From a virus (taxonomy: Duplodnaviria > Caudoviricetes), in IMG/VR virus record IMGVR_UViG_3300030207_000882, positions 1-31,209 of that record: 31,209 nt of DNA; one strand, 5' to 3'. A program made the position numbers and the translations under genes. Shown here piece after piece: positions 102 to 26,545 of this stretch. Positions within the stretch are counted from its first letter, which is position 1; the number at the start of each line of letters is the position of its first letter. Under the pieces are notes generated by a model. The model saw only the letters and a list, made by a program, of their open reading frames with translations. It ran no database searches and was not told where the DNA came from.

Positions 102-968
102 ATGAAGGTAACCGTCTACGAAGTTGGCCCACGAGACGGGCTACAGGCGTTACCTCAAACAGTTCCTGTAGAACAACGTATAGAATTGATAAATTCACTA
201 TATGATGCTGGTTTGAAAGAAGTTGAAGAAGTCTCTTTTGTTCATCCTAAACTTTTACCTCAGATGGCGAATGCTGAACAAGTATTCACTGGGCGTGGCT
301 CAGCCTTAGTTTTGAACAAGCGTGGGTTTGACCGAGCGATGGCTGCTGGTGTTGAGAAGATAAACATCGTAATTAGCCCCTGTGAAAGGTTTTGCATAGA
401 TAACATGGGTAGAAGATACCAAGAATTGTTACTTTCGTATCGCACTTTCTTACATAATTACCCAAAAGACAAGGTTAGAGTGTATATTTCGATGGCTTTT
501 GGTAGTCCAACTAGCGGTGATTTCAGTAAAAGTCACCTAGACATGGTGGTACGTGACGCTAAGATGTTTGGAGATACTGTGGTGTTTGCTGATACAATCG
601 GTGTCGCTGCTAATGATGACATCGAGTATGTTGCTGACTTGGCTCTCAAGCACGATATGATTCCGGCTTTGCACTTACACCATCGAGATAGAGAAGACTT
701 GGCTCTTTCACTTGTCAGAACTGGGCTGTTTTCCGGCATCAAGGAGTTTGATGCGAGTATCGGGGGACTGGGAGGCTGTCCTTTTGCTGAGGGTAGTGGT
801 TCTAATCTCTCTACTGAAGTCTTACTTCGTCACATTGAGGCTTGGGGTTTTGAACATAGTGTAGACATGAAGGCTCTAAAGAAGGCCAGTGCTCTTGCAT
901 TTCAGTTAAAGTCTTATGAAGCAACATCATCCCCTGACTTATGGGCGCTTTCGACACTGCATGGCTAG
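102..968 (+). CDS. Hydroxymethylglutaryl-CoA lyase (DRE-TIM metallolyase), putative auxiliary metabolic gene
   Basis: Signature motifs YEVGPRDGLQ, SFVHPK, ADTIG, HLH metal ligands and DASIGGLGGCPFAEGSGSNLSTE are all present. Start at ATG 102 or GTG 93. Confidence 0.9.
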   Translation: MKVTVYEVGPRDGLQALPQTVPVEQRIELINSLYDAGLKEVEEVSFVHPKLLPQMANAEQVFTGRGSALVLNKRGFDRAMAAGVEKINIVISPCERFCIDNMGRRYQELLLSYRTFLHNYPKDKVRVYISMAFGSPTSGDFSKSHLDMVVRDAKMFGDTVVFADTIGVAANDDIEYVADLALKHDMIPALHLHHRDREDLALSLVRTGLFSGIKEFDASIGGLGGCPFAEGSGSNLSTEVLLRHIEAWGFEHSVDMKALKKASALAFQLKSYEATSSPDLWALSTLHG

Positions 969-2140
969 TGTTGAAAAATGAACGTGAACTTAGACAAATA
1001 GGTGAAGGTGGATTTAGAGCAGTGTATGAAGGTGATAATGAAAACGAAGTCATCAAAGTACCAAGGCAACAAACTTACCTAGGTGACCTATCTCACAATG
1101 CTTTGATGAATGCTTTTGCTCAACTCGGCTATCCAGTAGAGCCTGAGAAACTGCAAATCTTACCTCCTCATAGAGCGATTAATCCACATGGGGGTCCGGC
1201 TGGTCGTATGGCTATGGACCCTGTGACAGTAAGACCCTTTAACATTCTAGGTTATACTCAAAGAAGAGCAGATATTGCTGATAAAAACAAAATTGCAGAT
1301 ATGATGGATGAGCGAGAACGTGATATTGGTGATGATTTACGTGGTAAGCAAGGGCCTAATTTTTACGGAAGAACAGACTTGAGAGATTACACATCTCCCG
1401 CTGTATTTGGAATCCATGACATAAAACCTAGTAATTTGGGGGTGTTTGATGGTGAAATTAGAGCCCTTGATGCTCTTACTAGTAGACCTTTAAATTTAAT
1501 GGATTTGTACAACCTTTATCTTCCTGACCGTCTTGCTAAATTACCTGAGGCGGAGAGAAGAAGTCTAGTCAATCTGTTTACTGATAAATCTCAATTTCAA
1601 GACATAGCCGACTTTGACTTCAGTCGAGATGACGCTCTCTCTGTTGGTGAAAGGCAGAGAATGAAGGAGTCCGACCCCATAAAATTACGTGACCTTGGAT
1701 ATAGGATGGGACTTAGAGGAGGTGAATATGAAACTCCTATGGAAGCGGCTCATAGGGCTTATGCCGCTTATCTTCAGGATGTAAGGGCTATGCAGTTGGC
1801 TAATTCCATGGTAGAAGACCCTTATCAAACTAGATTAGAAGAGTTTGTTGACCCTAATGAAGGACCTAAGAGTCTAAGTTCGCTTGAGGAAAGGAGTAGA
1901 GCGATGCAAACAGGTGGTGCTAGAAGAGAGTTGGCTTTACAAAATACAGGAGATATGAGCAAAATAGGACCTACATTCCCGTATTATCCGGGCCTAGAAA
2001 CTTTATTCCCTGAGCCTCAGCCTGAGCCTAAGTCACTCAATGAGAAAATTGAAGATAGAAGGCGTAAAAGATTGCTTGACCAATACATCACCACAACACC
2101 CCCCTCTAAAAATGATGGTGGCCCAGCACCCGGTGCTTGA
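941..2140 (+). CDS. Ser/Thr protein kinase-like protein with a C-terminal extension
   Basis: Gly-rich loop IGEGGFRAVY, beta3 lysine VIKVP, catalytic loop HDIKPSNL and a DFG-equivalent LDA. N-terminal AFDTAWLVLK leader. Confidence 0.75.
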   Translation: MGAFDTAWLVLKNERELRQIGEGGFRAVYEGDNENEVIKVPRQQTYLGDLSHNALMNAFAQLGYPVEPEKLQILPPHRAINPHGGPAGRMAMDPVTVRPFNILGYTQRRADIADKNKIADMMDERERDIGDDLRGKQGPNFYGRTDLRDYTSPAVFGIHDIKPSNLGVFDGEIRALDALTSRPLNLMDLYNLYLPDRLAKLPEAERRSLVNLFTDKSQFQDIADFDFSRDDALSVGERQRMKESDPIKLRDLGYRMGLRGGEYETPMEAAHRAYAAYLQDVRAMQLANSMVEDPYQTRLEEFVDPNEGPKSLSSLEERSRAMQTGGARRELALQNTGDMSKIGPTFPYYPGLETLFPEPQPEPKSLNEKIEDRRRKRLLDQYITTTPPSKNDGGPAPGA

Positions 2141-2177
2141 GCGATGACTCTATATGAAGCGGCATCATCCCCCAAGT

Positions 2178-2576
2178 ATGAGCCGTGCATTCGATAGTGC
2201 ATTTGATATAATCAAGATGAATCATTTTGAAAGAGAATATGGCTATGAGTTTATATTAGATAGCATTTCAAAAGCGGTGCAAGACCCACGTGTAGAAAAA
2301 ATGCGTATGTTTGTTTTACAGAATATGGATAGCCCTGACCCTAAAATGAGAGCACAGGCTGAAAGAGTCTATGCTCAACTTACACAAATCATGAGTGGCG
2401 CTGGTGGTAAAATTTCAGCAGCAACTCCTCTAGGTGTTGACCCGTCTCCTCCTCCAAACCCAGCAGGTTTGATGAGCACTGCAAACCCACAAGGTGAAGC
2501 GCCAATGCCTACAAAACCAATGGCAAAAGCATTAGATGCGTTTTTCGATGCTGAGTTTATGAGAAAATCATTCTAA
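2178..2576 (+). CDS. Hypothetical protein, possible virion-internal protein
   Basis: ORF track gives 2154. ATG 2178 yields MSRAFDSAFDIIK, matching the shared leader, and TATATGA lies about 27 bp upstream. Confidence 0.6.
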   Translation: MSRAFDSAFDIIKMNHFEREYGYEFILDSISKAVQDPRVEKMRMFVLQNMDSPDPKMRAQAERVYAQLTQIMSGAGGKISAATPLGVDPSPPPNPAGLMSTANPQGEAPMPTKPMAKALDAFFDAEFMRKSF

Positions 2577-3309: not shown

Positions 3310-3420
3310 TATACGTATATACACGAGTGCAAAATTGTATAGGTTGTAAAATTATTATTATATTATACTGTATTTATTTTAATATATAGTAAAGACAAAT
3401 ATCTATACAACCTTTACAAC
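3309..3420. promoter_or_regulatory. Non-coding AT-rich element flanked by 16-bp inverted repeats; candidate replication origin or operator
   Basis: TTGTATAGGTTGTAAA (3335-3350) and TATACAACCTTTACAA (3404-3419) match 14/16 as an inverted pair. The 53-bp spacer is about 89% AT. A perfect palindrome ATATACGTATAT lies at 3309-3320. Confidence 0.6.
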
Positions 3421-3451
3421 TTAATCAGCAACGTTTATCACTACCTATCGA

Positions 3452-4045
3452 GTGCCATTACCAGTGACCGTTATGGATGAAGATGTACAACATGAAGCAG
3501 AAATACGCCTTCTTGGACTCATTCTAGCACAGTCAGCATTAGTTGGAGTTTCAATTGGAGTCTTTGATGCTGAAGTTTGGTTGAAAAATACTACCCCTTT
3601 ACTGAATGGATTGACTTACGCTATGAGTGCATTCTTTGTACAAGGAATTGCTTATTACATGTTCAAAGTATTCTTTGAGCGTGGAATGAGAGAGCGTGCT
3701 AGAGCCACACAAATTGACCGTGACCGTAATTACAAATATCGTTCAATGCAACAGAATTTTGATTCGAGGAGGGCTGAAATGGAAATGCGTATCCAAGAAG
3801 CACAGTTAGAGCGTGAACTACGTTGGATGGAGGCTAATCCGGGTCAGATGCCACCTTCATGGGGTGTACCGGGTGGCTCTCCTTCACTAATAGGAACTTA
3901 TGACCAAGAAAGAGTAGATGGTTCTCGTATTCCTACACATGAAGCAAAAAGTCCAGCACCATTGAGTTTAGGTGTCTCAGAAGAAGATATTCCTTTGAAG
4001 AAGGATGGAACACCTGACAAGCGTTATCAAAAGAAGAATGAGTGA
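3452..4045 (+). CDS. Membrane protein with 2 predicted TM helices and a coiled coil
   Basis: Hydrophobic LLGLILAQSALVGVSIGVF and LTYAMSAFFVQGIAYYMFKVFF, followed by an R/E/Q-rich helix and C-terminal KKDGTPDKRY. The start may be 3464 or 3473. Confidence 0.75.
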   Translation: MPLPVTVMDEDVQHEAEIRLLGLILAQSALVGVSIGVFDAEVWLKNTTPLLNGLTYAMSAFFVQGIAYYMFKVFFERGMRERARATQIDRDRNYKYRSMQQNFDSRRAEMEMRIQEAQLERELRWMEANPGQMPPSWGVPGGSPSLIGTYDQERVDGSRIPTHEAKSPAPLSLGVSEEDIPLKKDGTPDKRYQKKNE

Positions 4046-4054
4046 GGCATATGT

Positions 4055-4309
4055 ATGGGCCGCATCTTCAAAACGCCTTCTGATAACGCCACTGAGGAAA
4101 CTCTACGAGCCATTCACATAGCAAATACTGTAGACACAACCTATGAAAGGACATGGGGTTGGATTAAAACTATTATAGCGTCTATTATATCTGCTTTGAT
4201 TATTAGTGCTATAGAACTTTATAATCCCGAATACAGTCTTTGGGAATCTACAGTGGAGTGGTTTGTTCAGAAATTATATGACTTAGCCGAATGGCTAAAG
4301 TGGTGGTGA
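4055..4309 (+). CDS. Small membrane protein
   Basis: TM segment WIKTIIASIISALIISAI and a Trp-rich amphipathic C-terminus. Confidence 0.7.
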   Translation: MGRIFKTPSDNATEETLRAIHIANTVDTTYERTWGWIKTIIASIISALIISAIELYNPEYSLWESTVEWFVQKLYDLAEWLKWW

Positions 4310-4319
4310 AGGTGAGTTT

Positions 4320-5045
4320 ATGGTTGAACCTGCGGGGACAGCATTGGTTGGCGCTGCCGTGTGGGGTCAACATATTTTCAACTCATGGCGACCAAGACGA
4401 GTTGGAATCTACGGGGCTCCTAAAGTTGGAAAAACCACCTTAGACCGATATATGACCACCCCCGGTGAAATGGAAGCGATACCGGATGAAGAGCGCACTG
4501 AACATGGGCGAGTGCTTGGGTTAGTAGGTCCTTACAGGATGCCTAAACCAACTAGAAAGAGAATTGGTTGGAACGGGGAAAAACGGGTCGTTTACTCTTC
4601 TGATATAGGAGGTCAAGAAAGATTTTGGAATCTATGGATAGAAGATATGGTGACTAGAAAAGTAGAGGCTGTAGTCTACATGTTTGATGATAGAGCGTTT
4701 AAGGGTGGAGACGACGGACTTCAACAAATAGCGGGATTCAAATTTTTAGTTGATAGATTAATCAATAGAGATTATCGTTATCGTTCTTTACGTTCAAGAC
4801 TTCGAGGGCGTAAATATCATCCTAGAGTGGTCATGTTAGTCGCTAATAAGGCAGATAGGTTCTTTGATGAGACTGCTTCTAAATTATGGCATGATGGTAG
4901 AATAGGTGAGCATAAAATATTCGACCCATTTCGTGACGACTTAATTAGATTACAAAAAGCAGGTATTCCTACTAAACGCTCTTTCATGGCTACACGCATA
5001 GGATGGAATGTAGAAAAAACCATGTTAGCCTTACTCACCTCATGA
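4320..5045 (+). CDS. Ras-superfamily small GTPase (Arf/Rab-like)
   Basis: G1 GAPKVGKTT, G3 DIGGQERFWNLW, strand AVVYMFD, G4 LVANKAD, G5-like FMAT and terminal GWNVEKTM. GGTGA RBS. Confidence 0.85.
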   Translation: MVEPAGTALVGAAVWGQHIFNSWRPRRVGIYGAPKVGKTTLDRYMTTPGEMEAIPDEERTEHGRVLGLVGPYRMPKPTRKRIGWNGEKRVVYSSDIGGQERFWNLWIEDMVTRKVEAVVYMFDDRAFKGGDDGLQQIAGFKFLVDRLINRDYRYRSLRSRLRGRKYHPRVVMLVANKADRFFDETASKLWHDGRIGEHKIFDPFRDDLIRLQKAGIPTKRSFMATRIGWNVEKTMLALLTS

Positions 5046-5080
5046 TAGACCTTTTAGGAAGCCTTTTAATCAAATAGTAT

Positions 5081-5275
5081 ATGGTGACAAGCATGGGGAG
5101 GAACGTTGTCACCACTACTTTACACGCTGCTTCTTCTAAAACCAATAGTTTGCGTACCACTGTTCCCATGTGGGTAATCAATCAATTTGGTTTGAAAGCA
5201 GGTGACGATGTTAATTGGAAACTTCATCTCAAAGATGGTGAGATAGTGGTGATTATGTCTCCTGTGGAGGCGTGA
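5081..5275 (+). CDS. AbrB/MazE/SpoVT-family swapped-hairpin DNA-binding protein
   Basis: SLRTTVPMWVINQFGLKAGDDVNW matches the archaeal AbrB pattern SlxvTiPxxvxxxlgLkxGDxvxw. The start may be ATG 5093. Confidence 0.75.
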   Translation: MVTSMGRNVVTTTLHAASSKTNSLRTTVPMWVINQFGLKAGDDVNWKLHLKDGEIVVIMSPVEA

Positions 5276-6207
5276 AAATGTTTACTAGGCAACCTCAAGG
5301 TAACCTTAATACGGCACAAATTCCAACTTTAGCAATGCAGGGAAACGACCAACTCACACAGGCAGCATTGGCTGAGATGGTAGCCGCTCAACAGGGTATG
5401 CAAGAAGTCGCAGCATCTCAAAATATAGAAGTTCCAAAAGTCAATTTTTTCCCTAGTAGACACCCTGACCCGAGAAAGGCTAGAAGGCAAGACATCAAGC
5501 AAGCGTACAAACTATTACGACCTGCTAAACGTAGCCGTTTTTCTCCCTTGCGATGGTTTGGTAATAAATATCGCTATGACAAAGATACTGCTGTTTGTGT
5601 AGTAGATGGATGTAATGTTGCTGAGTTAATCAAACATGATAATCTATACATGCGTATTTGTGATGAAGATACAGGTAGAAGCCTATGGGAAATGTACTGG
5701 CAGAACCCAGTAACAGGTCAACCTGAGGCATTTATCGCACGTGATAAAGTAACAGGTGGTAAAAAAATGAGAGGTACTTATTGTCCTGAACACCTTCATC
5801 TTTATCACTTATTGACAAAATGGGAAGCAGAGGAAGAGAAGCAAAATGAAATGAATCCTAGTAGACTTCGTGACAAAGTGAAAAAGGGAGTCTCTATCGT
5901 TACTGTGCCTATTTCAGCAGTCAAACAAAAGGACCCTCAACCTGCTATGTTACAGAAATATGAGCCATTTTTTGCTGAATTAGAACGTGACTCAGGTAAA
6001 ACAAAAGGAATTAGTATTCTGAATTATAAGAATCCTGAAACTGGTGTAAATGACGTTACTATGGTTGTGTTTGATTTACGCATTTTCCAAAATGAATTGA
6101 ATCAAATGAACATACCTACTGCTGAGTTCCAAGCACTTTTGAGCCAACAGCAGAGTTTAATTCAGCAGCCAAACCTTGATGTTGAAGGAACCACTGGGCA
6201 GGGGTGA
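5272..6207 (+). CDS. Hypothetical protein with a probable split Zn finger
   Basis: CVVDGC ... YCPEH putative metal ligands; GTGA stop/start overlap with the neighbouring genes. Confidence 0.7.
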   Translation: MKMFTRQPQGNLNTAQIPTLAMQGNDQLTQAALAEMVAAQQGMQEVAASQNIEVPKVNFFPSRHPDPRKARRQDIKQAYKLLRPAKRSRFSPLRWFGNKYRYDKDTAVCVVDGCNVAELIKHDNLYMRICDEDTGRSLWEMYWQNPVTGQPEAFIARDKVTGGKKMRGTYCPEHLHLYHLLTKWEAEEEKQNEMNPSRLRDKVKKGVSIVTVPISAVKQKDPQPAMLQKYEPFFAELERDSGKTKGISILNYKNPETGVNDVTMVVFDLRIFQNELNQMNIPTAEFQALLSQQQSLIQQPNLDVEGTTGQG

Positions 6208-6872
6208 GCCGAATGTATCAGTTTAATCAATCTCAACCGTCTGTAGGGCTAAATCTATCAGCCACTGGTGCTCCAGCGATGAATGCCCAACAGCCTCAAT
6301 TTACTGGGCTAGGTGCTCCTCAACAAACTCAACAACCAAATCCGTTAATGGCTGGGATTCTACAAGGAGCAGGTGTGCAGCAACAATATAATCAGGCTCA
6401 ACAATATGCTCAGCAGCAACCCTTTAGACCACCTAGTGAAATGGAGTTGTTGAATGCTTTATTACAATCACAAAATCCTCTTCATCGTTTTATTTCATCA
6501 GGTGGTTTAGGCTCTTTGATAGAACTTTTAGCAACAGCAACCACTCTTTCTATGCTCACTGTTTTGAAGGATGCTAAGTTCATAATTAATGATGATGAAG
6601 GTGAGGCAAAAATTGACATGGCTTCTTTACCTGATAATCTCAAAACACTAAGTTCTGAAAATGTCTCTATGTTACTTAATAATCTAGTCAATAACAGCAC
6701 ACAGACTATTCAGGCTGCTGAGGCGCAAAGACAGCAAATATTAGCACTCTCTCAACAATCAATGATGGGTGACGCTCTTCAAGCAGCGTTGGCGGATGAA
6801 GGAACAATGCAGAAAATAGGCGGTGGTATTGGAAGTGTCGCTCGCTCTTTCATGGGTCTGCCTAAGCAGTAG
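6204..6872 (+). CDS. Hypothetical Q-rich protein with a hydrophobic helix
   Basis: Low-complexity Q/P N-terminus and GGLGSLIELLATATTLSMLTVL; translationally coupled to the upstream gene. Confidence 0.7.
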   Translation: MSRMYQFNQSQPSVGLNLSATGAPAMNAQQPQFTGLGAPQQTQQPNPLMAGILQGAGVQQQYNQAQQYAQQQPFRPPSEMELLNALLQSQNPLHRFISSGGLGSLIELLATATTLSMLTVLKDAKFIINDDEGEAKIDMASLPDNLKTLSSENVSMLLNNLVNNSTQTIQAAEAQRQQILALSQQSMMGDALQAALADEGTMQKIGGGIGSVARSFMGLPKQ

Positions 6873-6880
6873 GTGATAAT

Positions 6881-7132
6881 ATGGGGTTAAGTGACAGTAC
6901 AGATGACCTTTTTAGAGGATTCAATATGGCTAGCACACAAGTGTTAGCACCAAAACGCTCAGTAATTACAGACATGATAATGGTTCAATTCATCAGTATG
7001 ATTATCACTTTCACGTTAATTTTGTTTATCAAAGGCGGAGAATTACCAACTAGTTCTGTTTCAGTTTTCCTTGTTGGAATCATGATTGCTTTCATGGGTC
7101 TTGGTAGTGTTTATGGGCGTATCAGTAAGTGA
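6881..7132 (+). CDS. Small 2-TM membrane protein (holin-like topology)
   Basis: MIMVQFISMIITFTLILFI and VSVFLVGIMIAFMGLGSVY with a basic C-terminus; GGTGA RBS. Confidence 0.7.
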   Translation: MGLSDSTDDLFRGFNMASTQVLAPKRSVITDMIMVQFISMIITFTLILFIKGGELPTSSVSVFLVGIMIAFMGLGSVYGRISK

Positions 7133-7360
7133 CCACTTACCTAAAGGACACTGCATTGATGGAGAAAGTGCTTTGATTTTTACAAAGCATCCGCATTTTT
7201 TACAGACATCTAGTGCTTTGAAGAGAAAAACGCAGTCGTAGCATTCATTCATTCTTTTAATGTAAAGCGCTTTACTGACTCTGTTTTTTCTAAGTACATC
7301 TTTAGTGGTTTTTGCTATGTCAGAGGCTTGCTTAGGTACTCGCTTAAACCGTCTGAACAT
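7061..7360 (-). CDS. Small Cys-rich protein (DUF6171-like phage family)
   Basis: RMNECYDC...CKKCGCFVKIKA...CPLGKW pattern common in marine viruses. This is the only convincing minus-strand gene. Confidence 0.65.
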   Translation of the reverse strand: MFRRFKRVPKQASDIAKTTKDVLRKNRVSKALYIKRMNECYDCVFLFKALDVCKKCGCFVKIKALSPSMQCPLGKWSLTDTPINTTKTHESNHDSNKEN

Positions 7361-7421
7361 GAATCTCCGTAATGGTGTATCAAGAAAAGGGTTATGGGCG
7401 ATGCTGCTTTAGAAGGGAAAC

Positions 7422-8108
7422 ATGGGACCAGCGGAGCGTGTCACAAAACGTTCATGTCCGTTTTGTCAACATCCTAGCCGTGACGAATTAGAACAGGGTC
7501 TTTTACTGGGTGAAATATCTCCAAAACAACTAGATGAAGACATGGGTTGGCGATATAACACAACCGACAGGCACTATAGAAATCACATGGGACAGTTTCA
7601 CATGGGTGCTAATCCGCAGTGTAAAATTTGCACACACCCACAACGTGCTGAGTTTGAGCAAAGATACTTTGCAGATGGGTCAGAATCTGAGGTAATTGCT
7701 GTTGAACTTGGAATACGTGAAGAGTCAGTATATCATCACATGAAACATCATTTTCAACCGTTAGTTCAAAGAGCGGCAGTGTCTGAGGTCACAATGGTTG
7801 TAGGAGAGGAAATGAGTGCGCTTAGGTCAAATGTCGAATTACTCAACCATAAATTGTCAGAATTGCTCAGCGAGGGAAGTGTTCACGAAGACGGTTTTGT
7901 CAGGGATGCCGTGTCTCTGCATAAAGAAGTCAGAGAGTCAATAAAGGACTTGATGAAGATGCAAGAAAGTTGGGGACCTACTACTGAAAACGGTGAGGTG
8001 CATAACACAATTAACATTCTCAAAGTTGAACTCGGTAAGGAAAGCCCTGAATCTTGGGCAAGAATTAGAAAGAAATTGGTTGAACATGTAGAGGAGGAAG
8101 TATTATGA
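7422..8108 (+). CDS. Tandem Zn-finger/HTH DNA-binding protein, probable terminase small subunit
   Basis: Two repeats of CxxCxHPxR...HxxxH (CPFCQHPSR..HYRNH and CKICTHPQR..HMKHH), a coiled coil and a C-terminal beta strand HNTINILKV. Confidence 0.55.
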   Translation: MGPAERVTKRSCPFCQHPSRDELEQGLLLGEISPKQLDEDMGWRYNTTDRHYRNHMGQFHMGANPQCKICTHPQRAEFEQRYFADGSESEVIAVELGIREESVYHHMKHHFQPLVQRAAVSEVTMVVGEEMSALRSNVELLNHKLSELLSEGSVHEDGFVRDAVSLHKEVRESIKDLMKMQESWGPTTENGEVHNTINILKVELGKESPESWARIRKKLVEHVEEEVL

Positions 8109-8509
8109 TGGAAGTACCAGTTCCCGATTTACTTCAAATCAATCATCCGGGCTACTCCATAGTTATGAGTAGACCTACTCTTAGCGATGGTAACATCCTT
8201 CTTTTGGTGGACTTCGCAAAATGCCTTACTGAAAGGTTTGAGTTCTACGGTAAAATGACAATTTCATCACCGGATATATTTGAACTACTCAATCACTCAT
8301 TCAAACTTTTGTTAAACTCAGATGAGCCTGAGAAAGTAATACCCGTTAGACATCTCACCGCTAGACTACTAGAGGAGTTTGAGCATATGGTTGGTAATAT
8401 GTCACAAGCGTTTCCAATCAATCCAATCATAAAGAACGTTTACAATGACCTAAGTGAGTTATTATTTGAGGCTCTTGCTGAATTAAGTGGAGGTGATTAT
8501 TGTGACTGA
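8105..8509 (+). CDS. Hypothetical alpha-helical protein
   Basis: ATGA overlap with the upstream gene and a GAGGAGG RBS. Confidence 0.65.
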   Translation: MMEVPVPDLLQINHPGYSIVMSRPTLSDGNILLLVDFAKCLTERFEFYGKMTISSPDIFELLNHSFKLLLNSDEPEKVIPVRHLTARLLEEFEHMVGNMSQAFPINPIIKNVYNDLSELLFEALAELSGGDYCD

Positions 8510-16447: not shown

Positions 16448-17674
16448 ATGTGGGCTTCAGCATTAATAGATGACGACTTCGTAGTGAAGGCTGTCCCTAA
16501 GTCTGAAGAAATTGTTGAGGCTATTCGTAAAACTTACAGATTTGCTCCCAACGGAGACGGATGGTTCAAATCTAAAATGAACTGTACTGCTGATGATTTA
16601 GTTAAGAGACTGCGTAAAGCACGTAGACATAATAAAAGTAGTAGTAATGATATAGATGCTATGATAGATGATATTCGCACAATCAAGTCAATAGAAACTG
16701 AGATGACAATTAAGAATTTATCTTGGTCTACAGACTTAGAGCATTGTATCAAAGGTTTAGGATTGTCTGATAGAGGCTTAAAACATCTACGACAATTTGG
16801 TGAGTCCCGCTCAATTTCCTTACAAAAAGCATGTTTACTTTGGGACAAGGCAGAAATAACTCTGAAAATGTTAGATGAACATGAAGATGTATGGGGTCAA
16901 GAAGAGCAACAGGCGTGGGCCTCCGCTATGCGTGATAGAAGTGATGCTCGTAAGATGTGGCGCACTGCTTTATTCCAATCTGATAAACTCTCTAAATCAC
17001 AGCAAAAACATTTGAATTACGTAAGTGAGCAATTACTAACTAAAGGACCCATGCACATAAAAGACCTTCAAACTGACATGAATGAAAATAATATGTTAAG
17101 CAAATCATTCACATCTAGTAAGTTTGCTTCACTTTTGAACATGTACGGTGAAGAATACGACATTATGAAAGGTAGTAAAAAAGGCACTTATGTTAGATTA
17201 TCTAACGAAGGTTTAGTTCTCAAAGATGTATGGTCTTATGGTGCTGGTTTCCTAGATGCAGATGGTTACATAACTATCACAGAAAGAGGAGAGCCACGAG
17301 CAGGTATGATTGCTACTGGTGAAAGAGGTCGTGTTCATTGTGAAGACCTTTACAAAACGATGGATTGTGGTGTCTTGCAGTTAGATAACAAAGTTCACAA
17401 AAACTCTAATCGTAGTCAACATAGACTTCAATTCTACTCTAAAGCAGACCTTCGTAAGTTCTTAGGTGGCGTTCTTCCACATCTAAAAATGAAAGATACA
17501 CAAGCAAAAGCCGTTCTTGCTTTCATTGATGAGAAGGACCCTGTGCGTAAGGAAGAGTTAAAGCGACTGGTACGTTACAAGAATTGGGAGGATGACGCTA
17601 AGAAGTCCTCTCAACTACTCTCTACATGGGGAGTTGATGCTGACACAATAGGTAAGTATGCGGAGGGACTATGA
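16448..17674 (+). CDS. LAGLIDADG endonuclease-domain protein with a long N-terminal extension
   Basis: YGAGFLDADGYITI, and FLGGVLPHLKMKDTQAKAVLAF typical of LAGLIDADG C-termini. Confidence 0.8.
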   Translation: MWASALIDDDFVVKAVPKSEEIVEAIRKTYRFAPNGDGWFKSKMNCTADDLVKRLRKARRHNKSSSNDIDAMIDDIRTIKSIETEMTIKNLSWSTDLEHCIKGLGLSDRGLKHLRQFGESRSISLQKACLLWDKAEITLKMLDEHEDVWGQEEQQAWASAMRDRSDARKMWRTALFQSDKLSKSQQKHLNYVSEQLLTKGPMHIKDLQTDMNENNMLSKSFTSSKFASLLNMYGEEYDIMKGSKKGTYVRLSNEGLVLKDVWSYGAGFLDADGYITITERGEPRAGMIATGERGRVHCEDLYKTMDCGVLQLDNKVHKNSNRSQHRLQFYSKADLRKFLGGVLPHLKMKDTQAKAVLAFIDEKDPVRKEELKRLVRYKNWEDDAKKSSQLLSTWGVDADTIGKYAEGL

Positions 17675-21106: not shown

Positions 21107-24100
21107 GTGCGAGAAGATGCTACTGACTGGTATCTAAGAGCACGTTCAGATTTACTCAAATCACTGCTCGACGGTTACGATTACCACAACTCTATTGCTA
21201 ATTACATCTTAGCAACTGAGAACTTAGAAAACCACGGCTATGAAATTATCAAAGGTCATAATGACTTTTTTTGTGACATGGTCGTAAAAGAAGAGGAGAA
21301 GTCTATTGAAGATATGATGGCTTCTGAAAGTCGTAAAGAGAGAAGGATAGGTCGAACAAAGAGAGCAGAGGCCGAGCGAGGTAGAATGACCGAAAGAGGT
21401 CGTGAGAGGGAGGAATCAAGACTTATCTTTTCGGGGTCGGGTGCTGAAACCATACCTAATCATCACTGGAAGGGGAGGTTTCCTGAATCGTCTATACATG
21501 ATTTTACTAGTCTTTGGCCCGATGCTCCTATGAAAGAAGACTCACTTTATTCAGATACTCACCGTTTCCAAAAAGAGCATCATCCTTTGTTAAATGTTAA
21601 TTCCGTTACTGGTTTACCAGCGTATATTGAAACTCTAAGAGATTTTTATTTACCCACTGAACCCGGTGCTCAATCAATGGCTGAGAGGGTAAAAAAACAT
21701 GAGTCAATGCATGAGAATCATTTTAGCAATAAAAGCAATCCTAGTGTTATTGGTATTAAAGATGACATGACGGGAGAAGTTACTCATCCTTTCAAAGGTC
21801 CTCTACACGATTCTCATTTACACGATTTTTACTTAGACAACCTTGAGACTTGGAAAAAAGACAATCAGGATTTAGTTAACTCAATCACTAATGAATACGA
21901 CAATCCCGCTGAACAAGATTTTGCTATAGCGCAAGCACACATGGATGATGCTATTAAGGGTTGGATGAATGAGGAACTAAATGATAATGGTCTAAGAACT
22001 TCATTAGGCTGGGGTGGTTACAATTTTGGTCTTGAGTTTCTTTCACCCTCTCAGAGAGAAAATGTTATCACTCATCTTATGGAGAAAGGGTCTAACTCAG
22101 AAGCAGCGCAGAAAATAAACATAGATGGTGGTAAGGGTAGGATTATTTCAGTGGGTCGTGTCAAAAGAAACTTGGCTCATAGATTCTCACCTGAGTTCTT
22201 TAGTGAAATGAGAAATATATTACACACATCTCAGAATCAAAGAAGTCATGTAGAAGGCTCTGATGATTTTCGTGATATAACTGACCATGATGCTGAATTA
22301 CTTTTCACTGCCTTACATGAGGCTGAACATGAAGCAGGTGGGACTATGGCTGATGCTATAATAGCAGCATTAAATGAAAAACACAGCCCTGAAGAGGGTG
22401 AACCTCCCCTTGATAATTTAAGAGCACTACGAAGTTTAGGTGAAGCAAAGTCTGCTTTAGATTCGCCGCAGGTAATCTCTAATTTGATGGATAGAAAAAT
22501 TCCTAGTAATTCTATAAATAAAGCAGCATTACTTCATCTACTAGGGTTAAAACAAACTAAGGATGGTTATGAAGCATCTGAAAAAGGTCATTTCGATGGA
22601 ACTAACAGACCTTTAGGAGTTAAGGATATAGAAGAACTTGATAGAATGATAGTTCAAGGTAGAGTTGGTTTAATTAGAGATAAACTGATTAGAAACGCTC
22701 AGGCTCATAGTCATCTTGGATTCAACGGTCCACATGAGGATGATATACCTGAAGATGAGGCTGATTTATGGATGAGAACGGAACATGGGCCTGTGGGCGT
22801 AGGGGCAATTTTCCATCTCCCTTACATTGGTGGTGGTAACGGAAGAAGTAGTCTATCAATGCTTGAAATGCTACACGACTGGATGCCTAAAGATGAAGAT
22901 GGTAATAGTCTGATTGGCTCTGTAACGCCCGACGGTAGAATAGTCATAAACCGTAAAAATACAGGACTCTTTGGCTCGGTGATTCCTGTTGACCGTACTG
23001 GTGCTTTTTCTAAAGAAATGAACCCACATGAAACACAGTCTTTTTGGGATGTGTCTGCTAAGAGAAAAGAGGGCGCTAGAGGTAGATTCAAGGTTAGGAA
23101 TACTAAAAATAATGAAATGGTCGGGCACTCTACTTTAGACCCTGAGGTCGCAAATATACTTGGGAGACTAACTTATGATGAGAGAGTAGATTTGATTGGC
23201 TCAGGTCGTACTAATCATCATTTAGGTTATCATACTTCTTTGGGCCATAATCCTATAATGTCAAGAGGAAAAATATTGGAGGGCACTGAGACTAGAATCC
23301 GTAACACTAGCCTTCACTCACACAACTTACACACTCGATTAGGTAGGAACTTCCCTCCTCACGCACCTGCTAAAACTAGGTGGTTGAAAGCGCAAGATAT
23401 TAAGAATCCTAAAAATAAAGATGCACGCACTCACATAGGAGATGCTAGAGTTTGGGATGCAACACATAAACTGTCAGGTAAAGGTGTGAGTGATTTACCT
23501 GAAAAGTCTAGCCCTGTATTTCAAGCAAAGTTAGAAAGTGCCTTAGATGAAGTTAATCATTTAGAAGACCAAGTGAGTATGTACGCTGGAGCAGAAGATG
23601 AAATGCCCGAAGGTCTAATGGAAGAACTAGTGGCCGCTAGGTCAAACTTACATAATCTTGAGGAGGTTGGTGGGACTACAATGGCTTCAGGTAGAGGGTT
23701 TACCTTTGGTCATGACCAGTTTGACATTAAAGGAGATGCCGATTTAGCAGCAATTACTCAAATGGCTATGATTCTAAAGCCAATTATGGAAAAAGCAGAC
23801 CCTGAGGCATTTGACCCTAGTGATAAGTTAAAGTTCCTTGCTAACTCATCACGTCTTTTTTATGATGCAAATAGAATGCTAATGATAGCACCACACAGTG
23901 CTCACGGTCTTACAACACATGGACCGGGGATAGACACAGAAAAAATACCATCTGCTAGCGCCACTGCATCCCAAATGATAGGAGACACAATAGTTCCTCA
24001 TCGTAATATGATGATAAGCACTATACAAAATGGTGTTGATATTACTAGAGATATGAGTGTTCAAGAAGTTATGACTGCTCTTGGTTTTGACCACGATGAA

Positions 24101-26545
24101 GATGATGGGCTATACACACTGGAGCGAGCAAGGTTACATGAGCAACACAAAGAACTCGCTCAGAAAATCATAGACAGTGTGCCTGAAGAGGGGGGTCTAC
24201 GTGCTCTAACGCATGGGTCATTACTTAGCACTGGGATGGGCTTTCACCCTAGAGGTCAAGATATTTCATTAGACCATGAACTTCATACTAACCACATGAC
24301 TGCTTTTGAAGAAGCCTATGATAATGAGCCAGTAGTTCAGCGCTACAAAGAGATGGCTAGAGAAAAAGCATCTACTGGTAGAGCATCCCAAAGAGGAAAA
24401 GAAACTAAAGGTTTGAATGATTGGTTCAAAACTAATTATCTCGGTAAGTTAGGTGTTATTCCTAGACTTATGAGCGGTCCTTACTCTAATGAGGCTGAAA
24501 AATATGGTCTAATGTATCATGACATGGGCAAGGTAGCAGATAAAAGTCATAATAAAAGCAAGGTCAAGAGTCTTATTCATAATGTAATTACGGTAGACCC
24601 TAATCTAGTTGATAGGAGTTTAATTGCTAATGAAACAATAGATGGTGAAATGACTAACATCACTAAATTAAACAGAAGAGGTGGTAGAGAAATACACCCT
24701 GCTACTTCTTTGAAAGGGGCAGCAGTTGGAGATTACTTCACATCAGGGCGTATGGAAATGGCTTATCCGATGTCACCTACAGTTGGTATAGAATGGAATG
24801 GCTCTGACTTTGTTGCTGGGACCAATGGAGCAAATCAACAAGTCTTACACTCAATCAGCGAACAATCACTAAATGATATACACGGTGAAGATTTAGTTCA
24901 GCAGGTTATGGCTTTACCCGGCGAATTTCAAAGAGGGCCGTTGTCTCAACAGCCAAATATTCTATTAGGAGGTAGGGCTGAAAGTGATGAGCCTACTGAC
25001 ATAGGTAAATCACTGATGGCTTTGATGGACCCTGATGCCTTGTTGAAAGGTGAAGATGGTAAGCCTTTACCGATTCTTCCAATGCATCGCATCTTTTCAA
25101 TCAAAGACTTTGAAGCGTTACGAGGCTTCAGTGGGGAATGGGTAGTTTCTATTCTTCCTGCTTCTGAGAGGTTTATAGTTCGTAAGAAGGGTAGTAGAAT
25201 CACAGCATATGATAAGCATGGTGATGTTGCTTTATCTCCTGAAGATAGAAAACAATTCAGGGCTTTGAATGACAAAAACTGGATGTTAGATGCAACTAAG
25301 AGTGATGATGAAATTCATATCGTAGACATAATTGAGTATGATGACTCTAATATCGCTGACATGACTGTTAGAGAGAGATTGAAAGTATTGAGGGGGCAAT
25401 TCGACAGTCATGAACATGTCATAGTTCCCGGTCCTCATAACTTACGTTTAACAGATACTGAGGGCTTGAATGAAGTTGTCGAGAGTTTGAAAGAGTCAGG
25501 AAAGAGGATGTTACTACGTGATGCAACTTCAACATACATGCGTGGTGAGCGCAGACACCCTAAGTGGTTTTTACTAAGACCTGATAAACAAGTGACTCTT
25601 ATCATTCTTGATGTTAGAGGTAAGGGGCCATTTACATATCGTTTAGGTGCTGGACCTTTAGATGCAGAAGGGTTTGGTAATAGAGGAGTAGAATACGAAG
25701 GGCAATCTTATCTTGACGTAGGTACTGTGAAGAGTCCTAAACCGTTTGAAGAAGGAGACTTCGTTAATGTCAAAGTATCAGGTGTAAAATCTAGGAATAA
25801 GAATGGTAAAACACTCTATGATGTTGCTACCTCTAGGATAGTATCAGAGGCGGAGGATGCACCAGCCTCACTTGAGACGCTTTCATTACTCACAAAATCA
25901 CATCCAGTGATACCAGTTCAGTTTTCACTAGATGTCAGTCACAATAAACTCACTCTATCATTCCCCGAAGTAGATGATGTGGTTTACAAAATGGAGAGAA
26001 ACTCTCATGGTATGTGGGCTCATTCCCCTTATTCTACATTGGCTGAGTTACAGAAAAATGAATACCCTATACTATTGGCTGAGAGCCTACGACCTTTATG
26101 GAATCAAGCAGCATCTCTGATGATTAAAGGTGCAACACCTGATGTAGAAAACAACGCTAGAAGCATGGCAGACCCTGAGCACCGTAAAGAATCTGAAAAA
26201 GAGTCTGCTGGAATTATAGATGAAGATGATGAAATGAACATTCTAAAACCAAATCAAATGGTAAAGACATTGACTCGTATTGCTGACCTAATGGATAAAC
26301 TAGCAAAGGAAAAAATGTCAGGTAGAACCAGTGCTCAAGGATTTGGCATAGACGTTGGAGACGGTACTGAGTCTCCTAGAGGGCCAACTTCATTGAATAG
26401 CGAACAGTCATTACCTGATTGGGATATGTTGAAGCGCCCAACAGAAGACCCGGAGGAAGAATACCCAGCAGTTCGTAGCAAGCGACTAAAACGCAAAAAT
26501 AGAGAGGAGTCTAACGTTTATGAAGCAGAATCGGAAAATGAGTAA
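21107..26545 (+). CDS. 1812-aa protein with a C-terminal degenerate ATP-dependent DNA ligase-like domain (NTase plus OB fold)
   Basis: WMLDA, IVDIIEYDDSNIADMTVRERLKVL and MLLRDATSTYMRGERRHPKWFLL echo ligase motifs III, IIIa, IV and V. The motif I Lys is absent. Confidence 0.75.
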   Translation: MREDATDWYLRARSDLLKSLLDGYDYHNSIANYILATENLENHGYEIIKGHNDFFCDMVVKEEEKSIEDMMASESRKERRIGRTKRAEAERGRMTERGREREESRLIFSGSGAETIPNHHWKGRFPESSIHDFTSLWPDAPMKEDSLYSDTHRFQKEHHPLLNVNSVTGLPAYIETLRDFYLPTEPGAQSMAERVKKHESMHENHFSNKSNPSVIGIKDDMTGEVTHPFKGPLHDSHLHDFYLDNLETWKKDNQDLVNSITNEYDNPAEQDFAIAQAHMDDAIKGWMNEELNDNGLRTSLGWGGYNFGLEFLSPSQRENVITHLMEKGSNSEAAQKINIDGGKGRIISVGRVKRNLAHRFSPEFFSEMRNILHTSQNQRSHVEGSDDFRDITDHDAELLFTALHEAEHEAGGTMADAIIAALNEKHSPEEGEPPLDNLRALRSLGEAKSALDSPQVISNLMDRKIPSNSINKAALLHLLGLKQTKDGYEASEKGHFDGTNRPLGVKDIEELDRMIVQGRVGLIRDKLIRNAQAHSHLGFNGPHEDDIPEDEADLWMRTEHGPVGVGAIFHLPYIGGGNGRSSLSMLEMLHDWMPKDEDGNSLIGSVTPDGRIVINRKNTGLFGSVIPVDRTGAFSKEMNPHETQSFWDVSAKRKEGARGRFKVRNTKNNEMVGHSTLDPEVANILGRLTYDERVDLIGSGRTNHHLGYHTSLGHNPIMSRGKILEGTETRIRNTSLHSHNLHTRLGRNFPPHAPAKTRWLKAQDIKNPKNKDARTHIGDARVWDATHKLSGKGVSDLPEKSSPVFQAKLESALDEVNHLEDQVSMYAGAEDEMPEGLMEELVAARSNLHNLEEVGGTTMASGRGFTFGHDQFDIKGDADLAAITQMAMILKPIMEKADPEAFDPSDKLKFLANSSRLFYDANRMLMIAPHSAHGLTTHGPGIDTEKIPSASATASQMIGDTIVPHRNMMISTIQNGVDITRDMSVQEVMTALGFDHDEDDGLYTLERARLHEQHKELAQKIIDSVPEEGGLRALTHGSLLSTGMGFHPRGQDISLDHELHTNHMTAFEEAYDNEPVVQRYKEMAREKASTGRASQRGKETKGLNDWFKTNYLGKLGVIPRLMSGPYSNEAEKYGLMYHDMGKVADKSHNKSKVKSLIHNVITVDPNLVDRSLIANETIDGEMTNITKLNRRGGREIHPATSLKGAAVGDYFTSGRMEMAYPMSPTVGIEWNGSDFVAGTNGANQQVLHSISEQSLNDIHGEDLVQQVMALPGEFQRGPLSQQPNILLGGRAESDEPTDIGKSLMALMDPDALLKGEDGKPLPILPMHRIFSIKDFEALRGFSGEWVVSILPASERFIVRKKGSRITAYDKHGDVALSPEDRKQFRALNDKNWMLDATKSDDEIHIVDIIEYDDSNIADMTVRERLKVLRGQFDSHEHVIVPGPHNLRLTDTEGLNEVVESLKESGKRMLLRDATSTYMRGERRHPKWFLLRPDKQVTLIILDVRGKGPFTYRLGAGPLDAEGFGNRGVEYEGQSYLDVGTVKSPKPFEEGDFVNVKVSGVKSRNKNGKTLYDVATSRIVSEAEDAPASLETLSLLTKSHPVIPVQFSLDVSHNKLTLSFPEVDDVVYKMERNSHGMWAHSPYSTLAELQKNEYPILLAESLRPLWNQAASLMIKGATPDVENNARSMADPEHRKESEKESAGIIDEDDEMNILKPNQMVKTLTRIADLMDKLAKEKMSGRTSAQGFGIDVGDGTESPRGPTSLNSEQSLPDWDMLKRPTEDPEEEYPAVRSKRLKRKNREESNVYEAESENE

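Follow-up and report, generated by a model that had tools for sequence, protein, structure and literature searches.

The gene at 4320..5045 of an uncultured tailed-virus genome was described in an earlier note as a virus-encoded, Arf/Rab-like and eukaryote-like small GTPase. This raises the questions of what kind of GTPase the gene encodes, where its relatives are found, and what a tailed archaeal-type virus would use it for. The window analyzed in this study is the whole stretch of 31,209 nucleotides of IMG/VR record IMGVR_UViG_3300030207_000882, which is linear and 29% complete. Pfam and PHROG scans of the window identified terminase (TerL), portal, prohead protease and capsid genes, as in a tailed-virus fragment. 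In a search of 50,697 phage records, the best capsid matches were haloviruses HVTV-1 and HCTV-1 at 34% identity, with no magrovirus record among the matches listed.

Magroviruses have a halovirus-like capsid, a genome of about 100 kb, a chaperonin and an HMG-CoA lyase, and a PolB/clamp loader/primase arm opposite the structural arm (PMC5434244, in part; PMC10768690). A complete relative of 107 kb (G085), with a GTPase 87% and a capsid protein 92% identical to those of the window, has PolB, clamp loader, primase and chaperonin genes on one arm and structural genes on the other. An HMG-CoA-lyase-like gene is present at 93-968 of the window (PF00682, E 1.8e-17). The window is a magrovirus-type genome, as this gene, the capsid and the layout of G085 all fit. 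The Marine Group II (Poseidoniales) host of magroviruses is taken from the same two reports (PMC5434244, in part; PMC10768690).

The GTPase gene and its viral relatives

The GTPase gene (gene C, 4320..5045, plus strand, as are all cassette features below) encodes 241 amino acids with a net charge of +14. It begins with ATG, with GGTGA 10 nt upstream, and its coordinates are exactly those given in the earlier note. All five G motifs can be read in the translation. G1 is the P-loop GAPKVGKTT (residues 32-40, 4413..4439). The candidate G2 residue is Thr60 of switch I (4497..4499, in ERT), which is invariant in alignment A1 and matched by Thr in all 18 rows of alignment A4 by eye; its region is of low confidence in the AlphaFold2 model. 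G3 and switch II read DIGGQERFWNLW (4602..4637), where DIGGQ (residues 95-99, nt 4602-4616) is followed by ERFWNLW. G4, the motif of guanine specificity, is NKAD (residues 176-179, 4845..4856; ANKAD in context). G5 is MAT (residues 223-225, 4986..4994), with SA or SS in distant subgroups, and is followed by GWNV (MAT-RIGWNV) and the last helix, with no C-terminal tail.

The viral GTPase contains two insertions, a basic loop and a helical insert after G4. The first is the basic-aromatic segment NRDYRYRSLRSRLRGRKYHP before strand 5 (residues 148-168, 4761..4823), in which P168 is invariant. This insertion is common to all subgroups, its charge being +7 in the window protein and +2, +9 and +8 in single members of the other three subgroups, and it may contribute electrostatic contacts with lipid or nucleic acid. 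The Thr-to-Asp interswitch spacing is 35 residues here, 24 in the P0144 subgroup and 19 in Asgard ArfR L197.

Close relatives comprised 472 proteins and 146 viral stretches; the best 80 of these 146, at 70-92% identity, were designated the near subgroup. A profile search of 1.84 billion representatives returned 86 matches, including subgroups at 30-42% identity. The distant loci were of P0144 type (80 of 140), P0127 type (4) and P0126 type (13). In total, 140 distinct proteins were drawn from 177 loci (80 near and 97 distant). G1 (G-x4-GK[TS]), G3 (DxxG) and G4 (NKxD) were each present in 140/140, and a G5-like motif was present throughout by a loose pattern. Thus, the statement that all G boxes are intact is confirmed, and these motifs stand out as the invariant columns in the family and persist in relatives of only 30% identity. 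D95, G98 and W106 of switch II are likewise invariant. Position 99, described earlier as a retained catalytic Gln, is indeed Gln in the window protein but is not a family trait, being Q in 94, E in 29, D in 14 and H in 3 of the 140.

The gene is under purifying selection, with a median dN/dS of 0.040 over 20 independent pairs, the lowest of five cassette genes (0.077-0.122 in the four neighbours). A single copy was present in 14 of 17 records picked by their capsid gene, including all four that are at least 90% complete; this sample lies outside magrovirus group C and other orders. The three misses were fragments with 1.7, 16 and 7 kb between the capsid gene and the upstream end of the contig, and the gene was missed because these contigs end short of the 21-24 kb capsid-to-GTPase distance. 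Gene C almost certainly encodes a working GTPase.

Outside this family the searches were largely negative. No longer relative (486-2000 aa) scored among 8000 candidates in a weak search, and tblastn of the window protein or of P0144 against the phage collection gave no match at E<=1. Loci for the most distant members (P0130, P0157 and P0201) were not found among viral contigs. P0157 and P0162 are very divergent members with extra insertions, and P0157 has a CxC-x2-C...CGC cluster after G4. The JGI auto-annotation labels several relatives as "GTPase SAR1 family protein."

The gene was also found at 72-83% identity on three short genome contigs in Maricaulis, Parvibaculum and Promethearchaeati MAGs. 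These magrovirus-type contigs (L179, L180 and L181) thus fall in one Asgard and two alphaproteobacterial bins. L181 (JABLTJ010000060.1) has a full viral neighbourhood around the GTPase, and genomes G002 and G003 contain three copies on three contigs and two copies, respectively. For these reasons, the three contigs point to viral contigs that were binned with the MAGs and are not evidence of a host.

Placement among small GTPases

Searches with the single window sequence were close to silent. Pfam gave no match at E<=0.05 (Roc appeared at 0.05 in another scan), PHROG gave none at E<=0.01, the NCBIfam small_GTP model gave E 0.0014, far below cut-off, and the best PDB sequence match was of Arl8 type at E 0.79. 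A language-model search placed viral "putative GTPase domain" clusters at the top and, at lower ranks, bacterial clusters whose share of members with the Arf Pfam ranges from a minority to a majority. With a virus-only profile, the best GTPase match was 8OUN (GerdArfR1) at E 2.9e-6.

The AlphaFold2 model (pLDDT 66.5, pTM 0.71; P-loop and switch I below 50) predicts a small G domain with an N-terminal helix. G1-G5 and this predicted fold place the protein among the Ras-superfamily (TRAFAC) small GTPases. The Foldseek comparison proposed earlier supported the class, as 500 of 500 counted matches at E<=0.001 were small GTPases, but its E-value order put Rab, Rho and Ras first. These E-values span only about tenfold over 50 rows, and full structural alignments were preferred to that order. 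Against 48,161 representatives, Arf6 scored Z 13.9, SRbeta 13.4, the Asgard Rag protein LokiRag and Sar1 13.3, G-alpha and Arl2 12.9, and the first Rab 11.2. When the top 1000 Foldseek matches were re-aligned (VIA), Arl8b scored Z 14.6 (rmsd 2.8 over 161 residues), Arl1 14.5, Arf1 14.0, HodArfR1 and GerdArfR1 13.3, and the best Rab 11.9. The matches at Z 13-14.6 cover 156-170 residues. The modelled viral GTPase is thus built like the Arf side, because structure ranks Arf, Arl, Sar1, SRbeta and Rag proteins above every Rab. Rag GTPases are within 1.3 Z of the best Arf-family match.

Profile-profile scores were highest for the bacterial P0204 family (121), followed by ArfR (104), Asgard Rab-like proteins (95), an expanded Asgard family (91) and ArvA (70). 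The tree contained 75 rows, of which 19 were viral, with long branches and no eukaryotic, MglA, Roc or Rag rows; its labels ArfR, RasL and ArfL are our own, assigned from Pfam scores of a few members and from motifs. The viral rows fell on one side of a branch (98/96), and ArvA, ArfR, ArfL and RasL were united by another (98/90). AU tests on a 36-row subset rejected a grouping of the virus with RasL (p-AU 0.0215). Virus with ArfR was borderline (p-AU 0.0497, with long branches and no eukaryotic rows), and virus with ArvA was not rejected (p-AU 0.47), the two being separate in the best tree. On these sequences the viral GTPases appear as a separate lineage that is not nested in the Asgard ArfR or Rab-like groups.

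The earlier reading therefore stands in part. A virus-encoded small GTPase in a tailed archaeal-type virus is supported by motifs, fold and conservation together, and the grouping with ordinary prokaryotic P-loop families named as its refutation was not seen. From "Arf/Rab-like," the Arf half is kept for the predicted fold and the Rab half is dropped, with Rab Z scores 2-3 lower and the Rab-like clade rejected. The view of switch II as an Arf/Rab blend fails for the same reasons and because none of the 140 relatives has a Cys in the last five residues, as Rab or RasL types, whose C-terminal tail ends in a Cys prenylation motif, would. Compared with the Arf switch II, DxxGQxxxRxxW, the D, G and W are fixed in the viral family, the Gln varies as given above, and Arg or Lys at the place of the Arg is restricted to the 13 P0126-type proteins, with Trp in its place in two subgroups. 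"Eukaryote-like" as a statement of origin is not upheld either. The viral proteins form their own long branch, and their nearest detected relatives are divergent prokaryotic proteins, in a tree without eukaryotic rows. Within that tree, nothing appears to point to capture from eukaryotes or Asgard archaea.

The N-terminus, which reads ALVGAAVWGQHIFNSW, is predicted to form a helix (residues 4-25, 4329..4394; residues 4-23 in the AlphaFold2 model, pLDDT about 50). Residues 4-14 are small and apolar, and residues 15-25 (WGQHIFNSWRP) are amphipathic, with an 11-residue hydrophobic moment of 0.55 compared with 0.52-0.62 in five Asgard ArfR N-termini. The best 18-residue moment exceeded shuffles in 0/70 near, 23/54 P0144, 2/13 P0126 and 0/2 P0127 proteins. 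A hydrophobic helix, as described earlier, is kept in every subgroup, but its amphipathic character in the window protein is limited to the distal half. Anchoring of the SRbeta type is not supported. The highest Kyte-Doolittle mean over 19 residues is 0.86, below what a transmembrane anchor would need, no transmembrane segment was called in the window GTPase, and a hydrophobic call anywhere (threshold 1.5) was made in only 10 of 140 relatives. The Gly2 of a myristoylation signal is absent as well, with Val2 here and Gly at position 2 in 2/140 relatives; two crystallised Asgard ArfR proteins likewise have no such signal.

Several known systems can be compared with the viral GTPase. First, the Arf family (Arl8, Arl1, Arf1/Arf6, Sar1, SRbeta and Asgard ArfR) contains its best structural matches; the Asgard ArfR structures are HodArfR1 (8OUK) and GerdArfR1 (8OUM/8OUN) (bioRxiv 10.1101/2024.02.28.582541, in part). 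The viral GTPase shares with this family the N-terminal helix, a DxxG..x5..W switch II, an ANK-type G4 and the absence of a C-terminal tail. However, the viral protein is only 13-17% identical to the Arf family and differs in its long interswitch, two insertions, missing Gly2, variable Gln position and, in two subgroups, the Trp replacing the switch II Arg. It also has its own gene block and sits outside ArfR in the tree.

Secondly, the archaeal small GTPase ArvA/OapA likewise has an N-terminal helix, and its gene is linked to two others downstream, including one for a zinc protein (PMC10927574, in part). ArvA and the viral GTPase have a similar G1 context (GIYGAP.VGKTTL). However, the likeness is confined to the first 62 profile columns, which align at 32%, and the viral locus has two upstream membrane genes and no OapB or OapC. 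An ArvA control locus (L207) showed PF09846 and PF09845, whereas viral genes D and E showed no Pfam match.

Third, the bacterial Arf-like family with the highest profile score (P0204 and 20 relatives; P0201 and P0205) and the expanded Asgard family are on the viral side of the tree, with weak support and long branches. They differ from the viral GTPase in having DxPG in G3 and, by inspection, no neighbours like genes A, B, D and E. In P0204-type loci a conserved orphan of 180-200 aa follows the GTPase (L182:1489-2821, L183:6001-7292, L185:1505-3596 and L186:151-2273), and an orphan of 250-270 aa precedes it in L185, L186 and, partially, L184. Two of these neighbouring orphans had no Pfam match, and an IS-like element, a relaxase-like gene and a kinase-like gene were also seen by inspection. 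In the expanded Asgard family (L193, L198-L203 and L213), which may correspond to Rup3, a basic insertion occupies the position of the viral one. In L193 and L198-L203 the GTPase adjoins, by inspection, ferredoxin/oxidoreductase-like genes and a Cys-rich protein.

Lastly, giant eukaryotic viruses also carry small GTPases, mostly named Rab, Ras or Ran among the BFVD matches listed, and a mobile region of Atabeyarchaeia carries Arf-like GTPases (PMC11529989, in part). Compared with these, which are so named or cluster with Asgard and eukaryotic Arf proteins, the tailed-virus lineage is distinct and has its own partners.

The gene cassette around the GTPase

The earlier note did not recognize that the GTPase is one part of a conserved cassette. 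Gene A (3452..4045) encodes a membrane protein with 1-2 hydrophobic segments and a charged helical tail, and gene B (4055..4309) an 84-aa membrane protein with one hydrophobic segment and a Trp-rich C-terminus; neither matched a family. Downstream of gene C are gene D (5272..6207), a soluble orphan with a predicted metal site, gene E (6204..6872), a Gln-rich helical orphan with a conserved S/Q-EN motif, and gene F (6881..7132), an 83-aa protein with two hydrophobic segments. Gene F is restricted to the near and P0126 subgroups (80/80 and 12/13 loci; 0/84 others). Of 177 loci examined, 154 had flanks of at least 1.3 kb upstream and 2.3 kb downstream, and all 154 (74 near, 65 P0144, 4 P0127 and 11 P0126) showed the order A-B-C-D-E on one strand, using profiles built partly from each subgroup's own members. 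Median gaps are -4 to 13 nt at most junctions.

The near subgroup differs between genes C and D. A promoter-like GACC...CCTTTT motif follows the GTPase stop (5048..5067) in 48/80 near loci, compared with 1/80 in a coding control and none in the 97 distant loci. A small regulator of AbrB/MazE fold (5081..5275; PF04014, E 6.8e-6) is present in 80/80 near and 0/97 distant loci.

Gene D is the most faithful companion of the GTPase and, alone among the partners, is clearly homologous across the four subgroups (hhalign probabilities 99.9, 99.9 and 90). For gene A the probabilities were 94 in P0126, 96 in P0127 and 0.9 in P0144. Those for gene B were 77, 24 (weak) and 0.7, and for gene E 99, 37 and 35 (the last two weak). 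The P0144 genes A and B are therefore not supported as homologues of the window's A and B, and an HMM from near-subgroup sequences alone missed A, B and E in P0144. The upstream P0144 pair are nevertheless still membrane proteins, so that each of the four subgroups has a pair of membrane genes upstream of the GTPase.

The putative metal ligands of gene D are C109 (57/57), C112 or C114, C171 (57/57) and H174 (56/57). Its model has a pLDDT of 81 and no Foldseek match at E<=0.001 (best VIA Z 4.3; best Atlas match 0.78), and no ArfGAP was among the fold matches listed. ArfGAPs combine a C4 zinc finger with an Arg finger. At the place matching that Arg finger, gene D has Arg in 13/57 and His in 39/57 sequences. 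Gene D is a candidate regulator or effector of the GTPase.

In the P0144 subgroup (L083) the block is flanked by the major capsid gene and the tail genes, and is therefore in a morphogenesis operon. In G085, 15 of 106 ORFs (at least 55 aa, within stretches) have a hydrophobic segment. With six further short ORFs set aside as antisense, only A, B, E and F are both shorter than 250 aa and oriented like the genes around them. A PHROG scan of 94 of these 106 ORFs listed no lysis family. A late-promoter motif shared upstream of gene A and the structural genes was looked for and not found. An RNA search of 3400-8200 listed no holder. The intergenic stretch upstream of gene A (3310-3451) is AT-rich here and in most near relatives, and is a candidate promoter or origin.

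Several other genes of the window were noted. The HMG-CoA-lyase-like gene was seen in 22/80 near loci, within the flank fetched. A 228-aa protein with two CxxC...H zinc-finger/HTH-like repeats (7422-8108), kept in 80/80 near and 12/13 P0126 loci and with no family match at cut-off, is a candidate small terminase subunit. Between the terminase region and the portal, a 408-aa protein (16448-17674) has a weakly endonuclease-like C-terminal part (phrog_5046, E 1.2e-8). An 1812-aa protein with no Pfam or PHROG match (21107-26545) lies between the portal region and the protease, and its last 500 residues resemble an ATP-dependent DNA ligase by eye; part of the magrovirus paper's supplement mentions a ligase in the structural module. 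In addition, an "AFDxAWxxxK"-like peptide opens runs of unrelated genes (window 941-2576; L168:195-2423; L177:614-4205; L334:3033-8361), which suggests a shared N-terminal targeting or packaging tag.

Proposed role and alternatives

The GTPase probably acts at a membrane together with its cassette partners. We tentatively propose that it is a late GTP/GDP switch on the host membrane that would time virion exit. GTP binding would expose the N-terminal helix, which with the basic insertion would bind the inner face of the host membrane. The docked GTPase would then act on membrane proteins A and B (and F), either assembling or releasing them, and these would breach or deform the membrane, letting new virions out. 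The Cys/His protein D may be a GAP or effector that supplies catalysis in trans, because position 99 can be occupied by Q, E, D or H, and the gene E product may be a scaffold or exchange factor.

The membrane part of this proposal is favoured by a predicted fold nearest the membrane-binding Arf, Arl and Sar1 proteins, the N-terminal helix in every subgroup and the lack of a C-terminal Cys. In cells, a GTPase that has an N-terminal helix and acts on an archaeal membrane is already known in ArvA (PMC10927574, in part). The egress part is drawn from neighbourhood and exclusion and is itself tentative. It is suggested by the fixed block, the single copy in 14 of 17 capsid-picked records, the morphogenesis position in P0144 and, in G085, the lack of other short membrane ORFs in the local gene direction and of a listed lysis family among the ORFs scanned. 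The players of tailed archaeal virus egress are described as uncharacterised in the part of a review considered here (PMC10791045). Like the holin-antiholin lysis cassettes of tailed phages, the block combines small membrane proteins with a late-operon setting and is a candidate exit device, but it has no holin or endolysin family match. The holin scheme given in that part of the review (PMC10791045) does not include a nucleotide switch that acts as timer.

Several results count against this proposal. First, an Arf-type interswitch toggle is doubtful in the viral GTPase, as its interswitch is far longer than that of ArfR and the P-loop and switch I are modelled below pLDDT 50. Secondly, the AbrB-like gene and the promoter-like motif split A-B-C from D-E in the near subgroup. 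Third, no GTPase relative was found in the phage collection (E<=1) for the lytic haloviruses with the most similar capsid, and therefore the cassette cannot be the group's general lysis route. Also against it are the low hhalign probabilities of A and B and the weak one of E in P0144, the 18-residue moment, which exceeds shuffles in no near-subgroup protein, and the six antisense ORFs with hydrophobic segments in G085. That magroviruses as such leave the cell by a GTPase-timed membrane-breach machine, with its own viral GAP or effector and gated small membrane proteins, seems somewhat unlikely.

The same membrane anatomy could serve other ends. The block may remodel the host envelope, through superinfection exclusion, a block of division or traffic, or vesicle release like that of ArvA-ArvB-ArvC, which we consider rather unlikely. 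In the ArvA system the genes after that of the N-helix GTPase encode a partner and a zinc-ribbon protein (PMC10927574, in part), and both the alignment of the first 62 columns and the p-AU of 0.47 are consistent with a relationship. However, the whole-profile score of ArvA was among the lowest, and D and E match neither OapB nor OapC. Accessory host-takeover functions are usually patchy among viruses, whereas the GTPase is present in all four near-complete genomes.

A membrane-tethered site of virion assembly or packaging, anchored by A and B and switched by the GTPase with no breach of the membrane, is unlikely. The head-tail operon position in P0144 fits such a site, as do the Gln-rich, scaffold-like D and E and the strongly basic GTPase (+10 to +14). 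However, it would leave G085 with no other small membrane protein for exit, and the haloviruses with a similar head module have no detectable GTPase relative.

A switch directed at nucleic acid or the ribosome, acting with zinc protein D and the AbrB-like regulator in early-to-late control, translation or packaging, is quite improbable. The high net charge and Arg-rich insertion, the conservation of D across all subgroups, and the AbrB gene and second promoter-like motif of the near subgroup are compatible with it. The membrane genes would then be mere operon neighbours, but two of them precede the GTPase in every subgroup, the N-terminal helix is kept in all, and the predicted fold is closer to Arf (Z 13.9) than to translation-factor GTPases (Z 11.6). 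Finally, an ordinary prokaryotic P-loop protein, a decayed host gene or chance motifs, suggested by the lack of a family match for the single sequence, can be dismissed as highly improbable because the conservation pattern (motifs kept to 30% identity, low dN/dS) and the small-GTPase fold contradict it.

The literature searched contained no description of this system. No paper was found that links magroviruses and GTPases; a search for Poseidoniales viruses and GTPases gave only papers on Asgard archaea, and one for phage-encoded Arf-like small GTPases gave only unrelated work. "GTP" is absent from the main texts of PMC11706807, PMC10160649, PMC5434244, PMC5332604 and PMC12999244, and "GTPase" from that of PMC8651126. 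"GTP" is also absent from the supplements of PMC11706807, PMC10160649 and PMC5434244 as far as these were covered, the annotation tables of PMC11706807 probably falling outside that coverage. The viral GTPase branch and its membrane cassette are thus apparently auto-annotated by JGI and undescribed in this literature.

Gene C is real and conserved, and belongs to a viral branch of Arf-like GTPases that is new and comes with a membrane cassette of its own. Magroviruses infect archaea that rank among the most abundant groups of the surface ocean (PMC5434244, in part). Their compact block of a switch and membrane proteins comprises five or six genes that can be expressed and assayed without host culture. 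Close to the Arf side, the branch gives the Ras superfamily a deep and purely viral lineage, whose orphan partner, gene D, has no fold match, and it bears on how membrane-binding GTPases diversified in prokaryotes. If the proposal is true, GTPase-timed exit would be a new type of lysis clock for tailed viruses and the first candidate exit mechanism for tailed archaeal viruses, and an Arf-like membrane module would have evolved outside eukaryotes and Asgard archaea.
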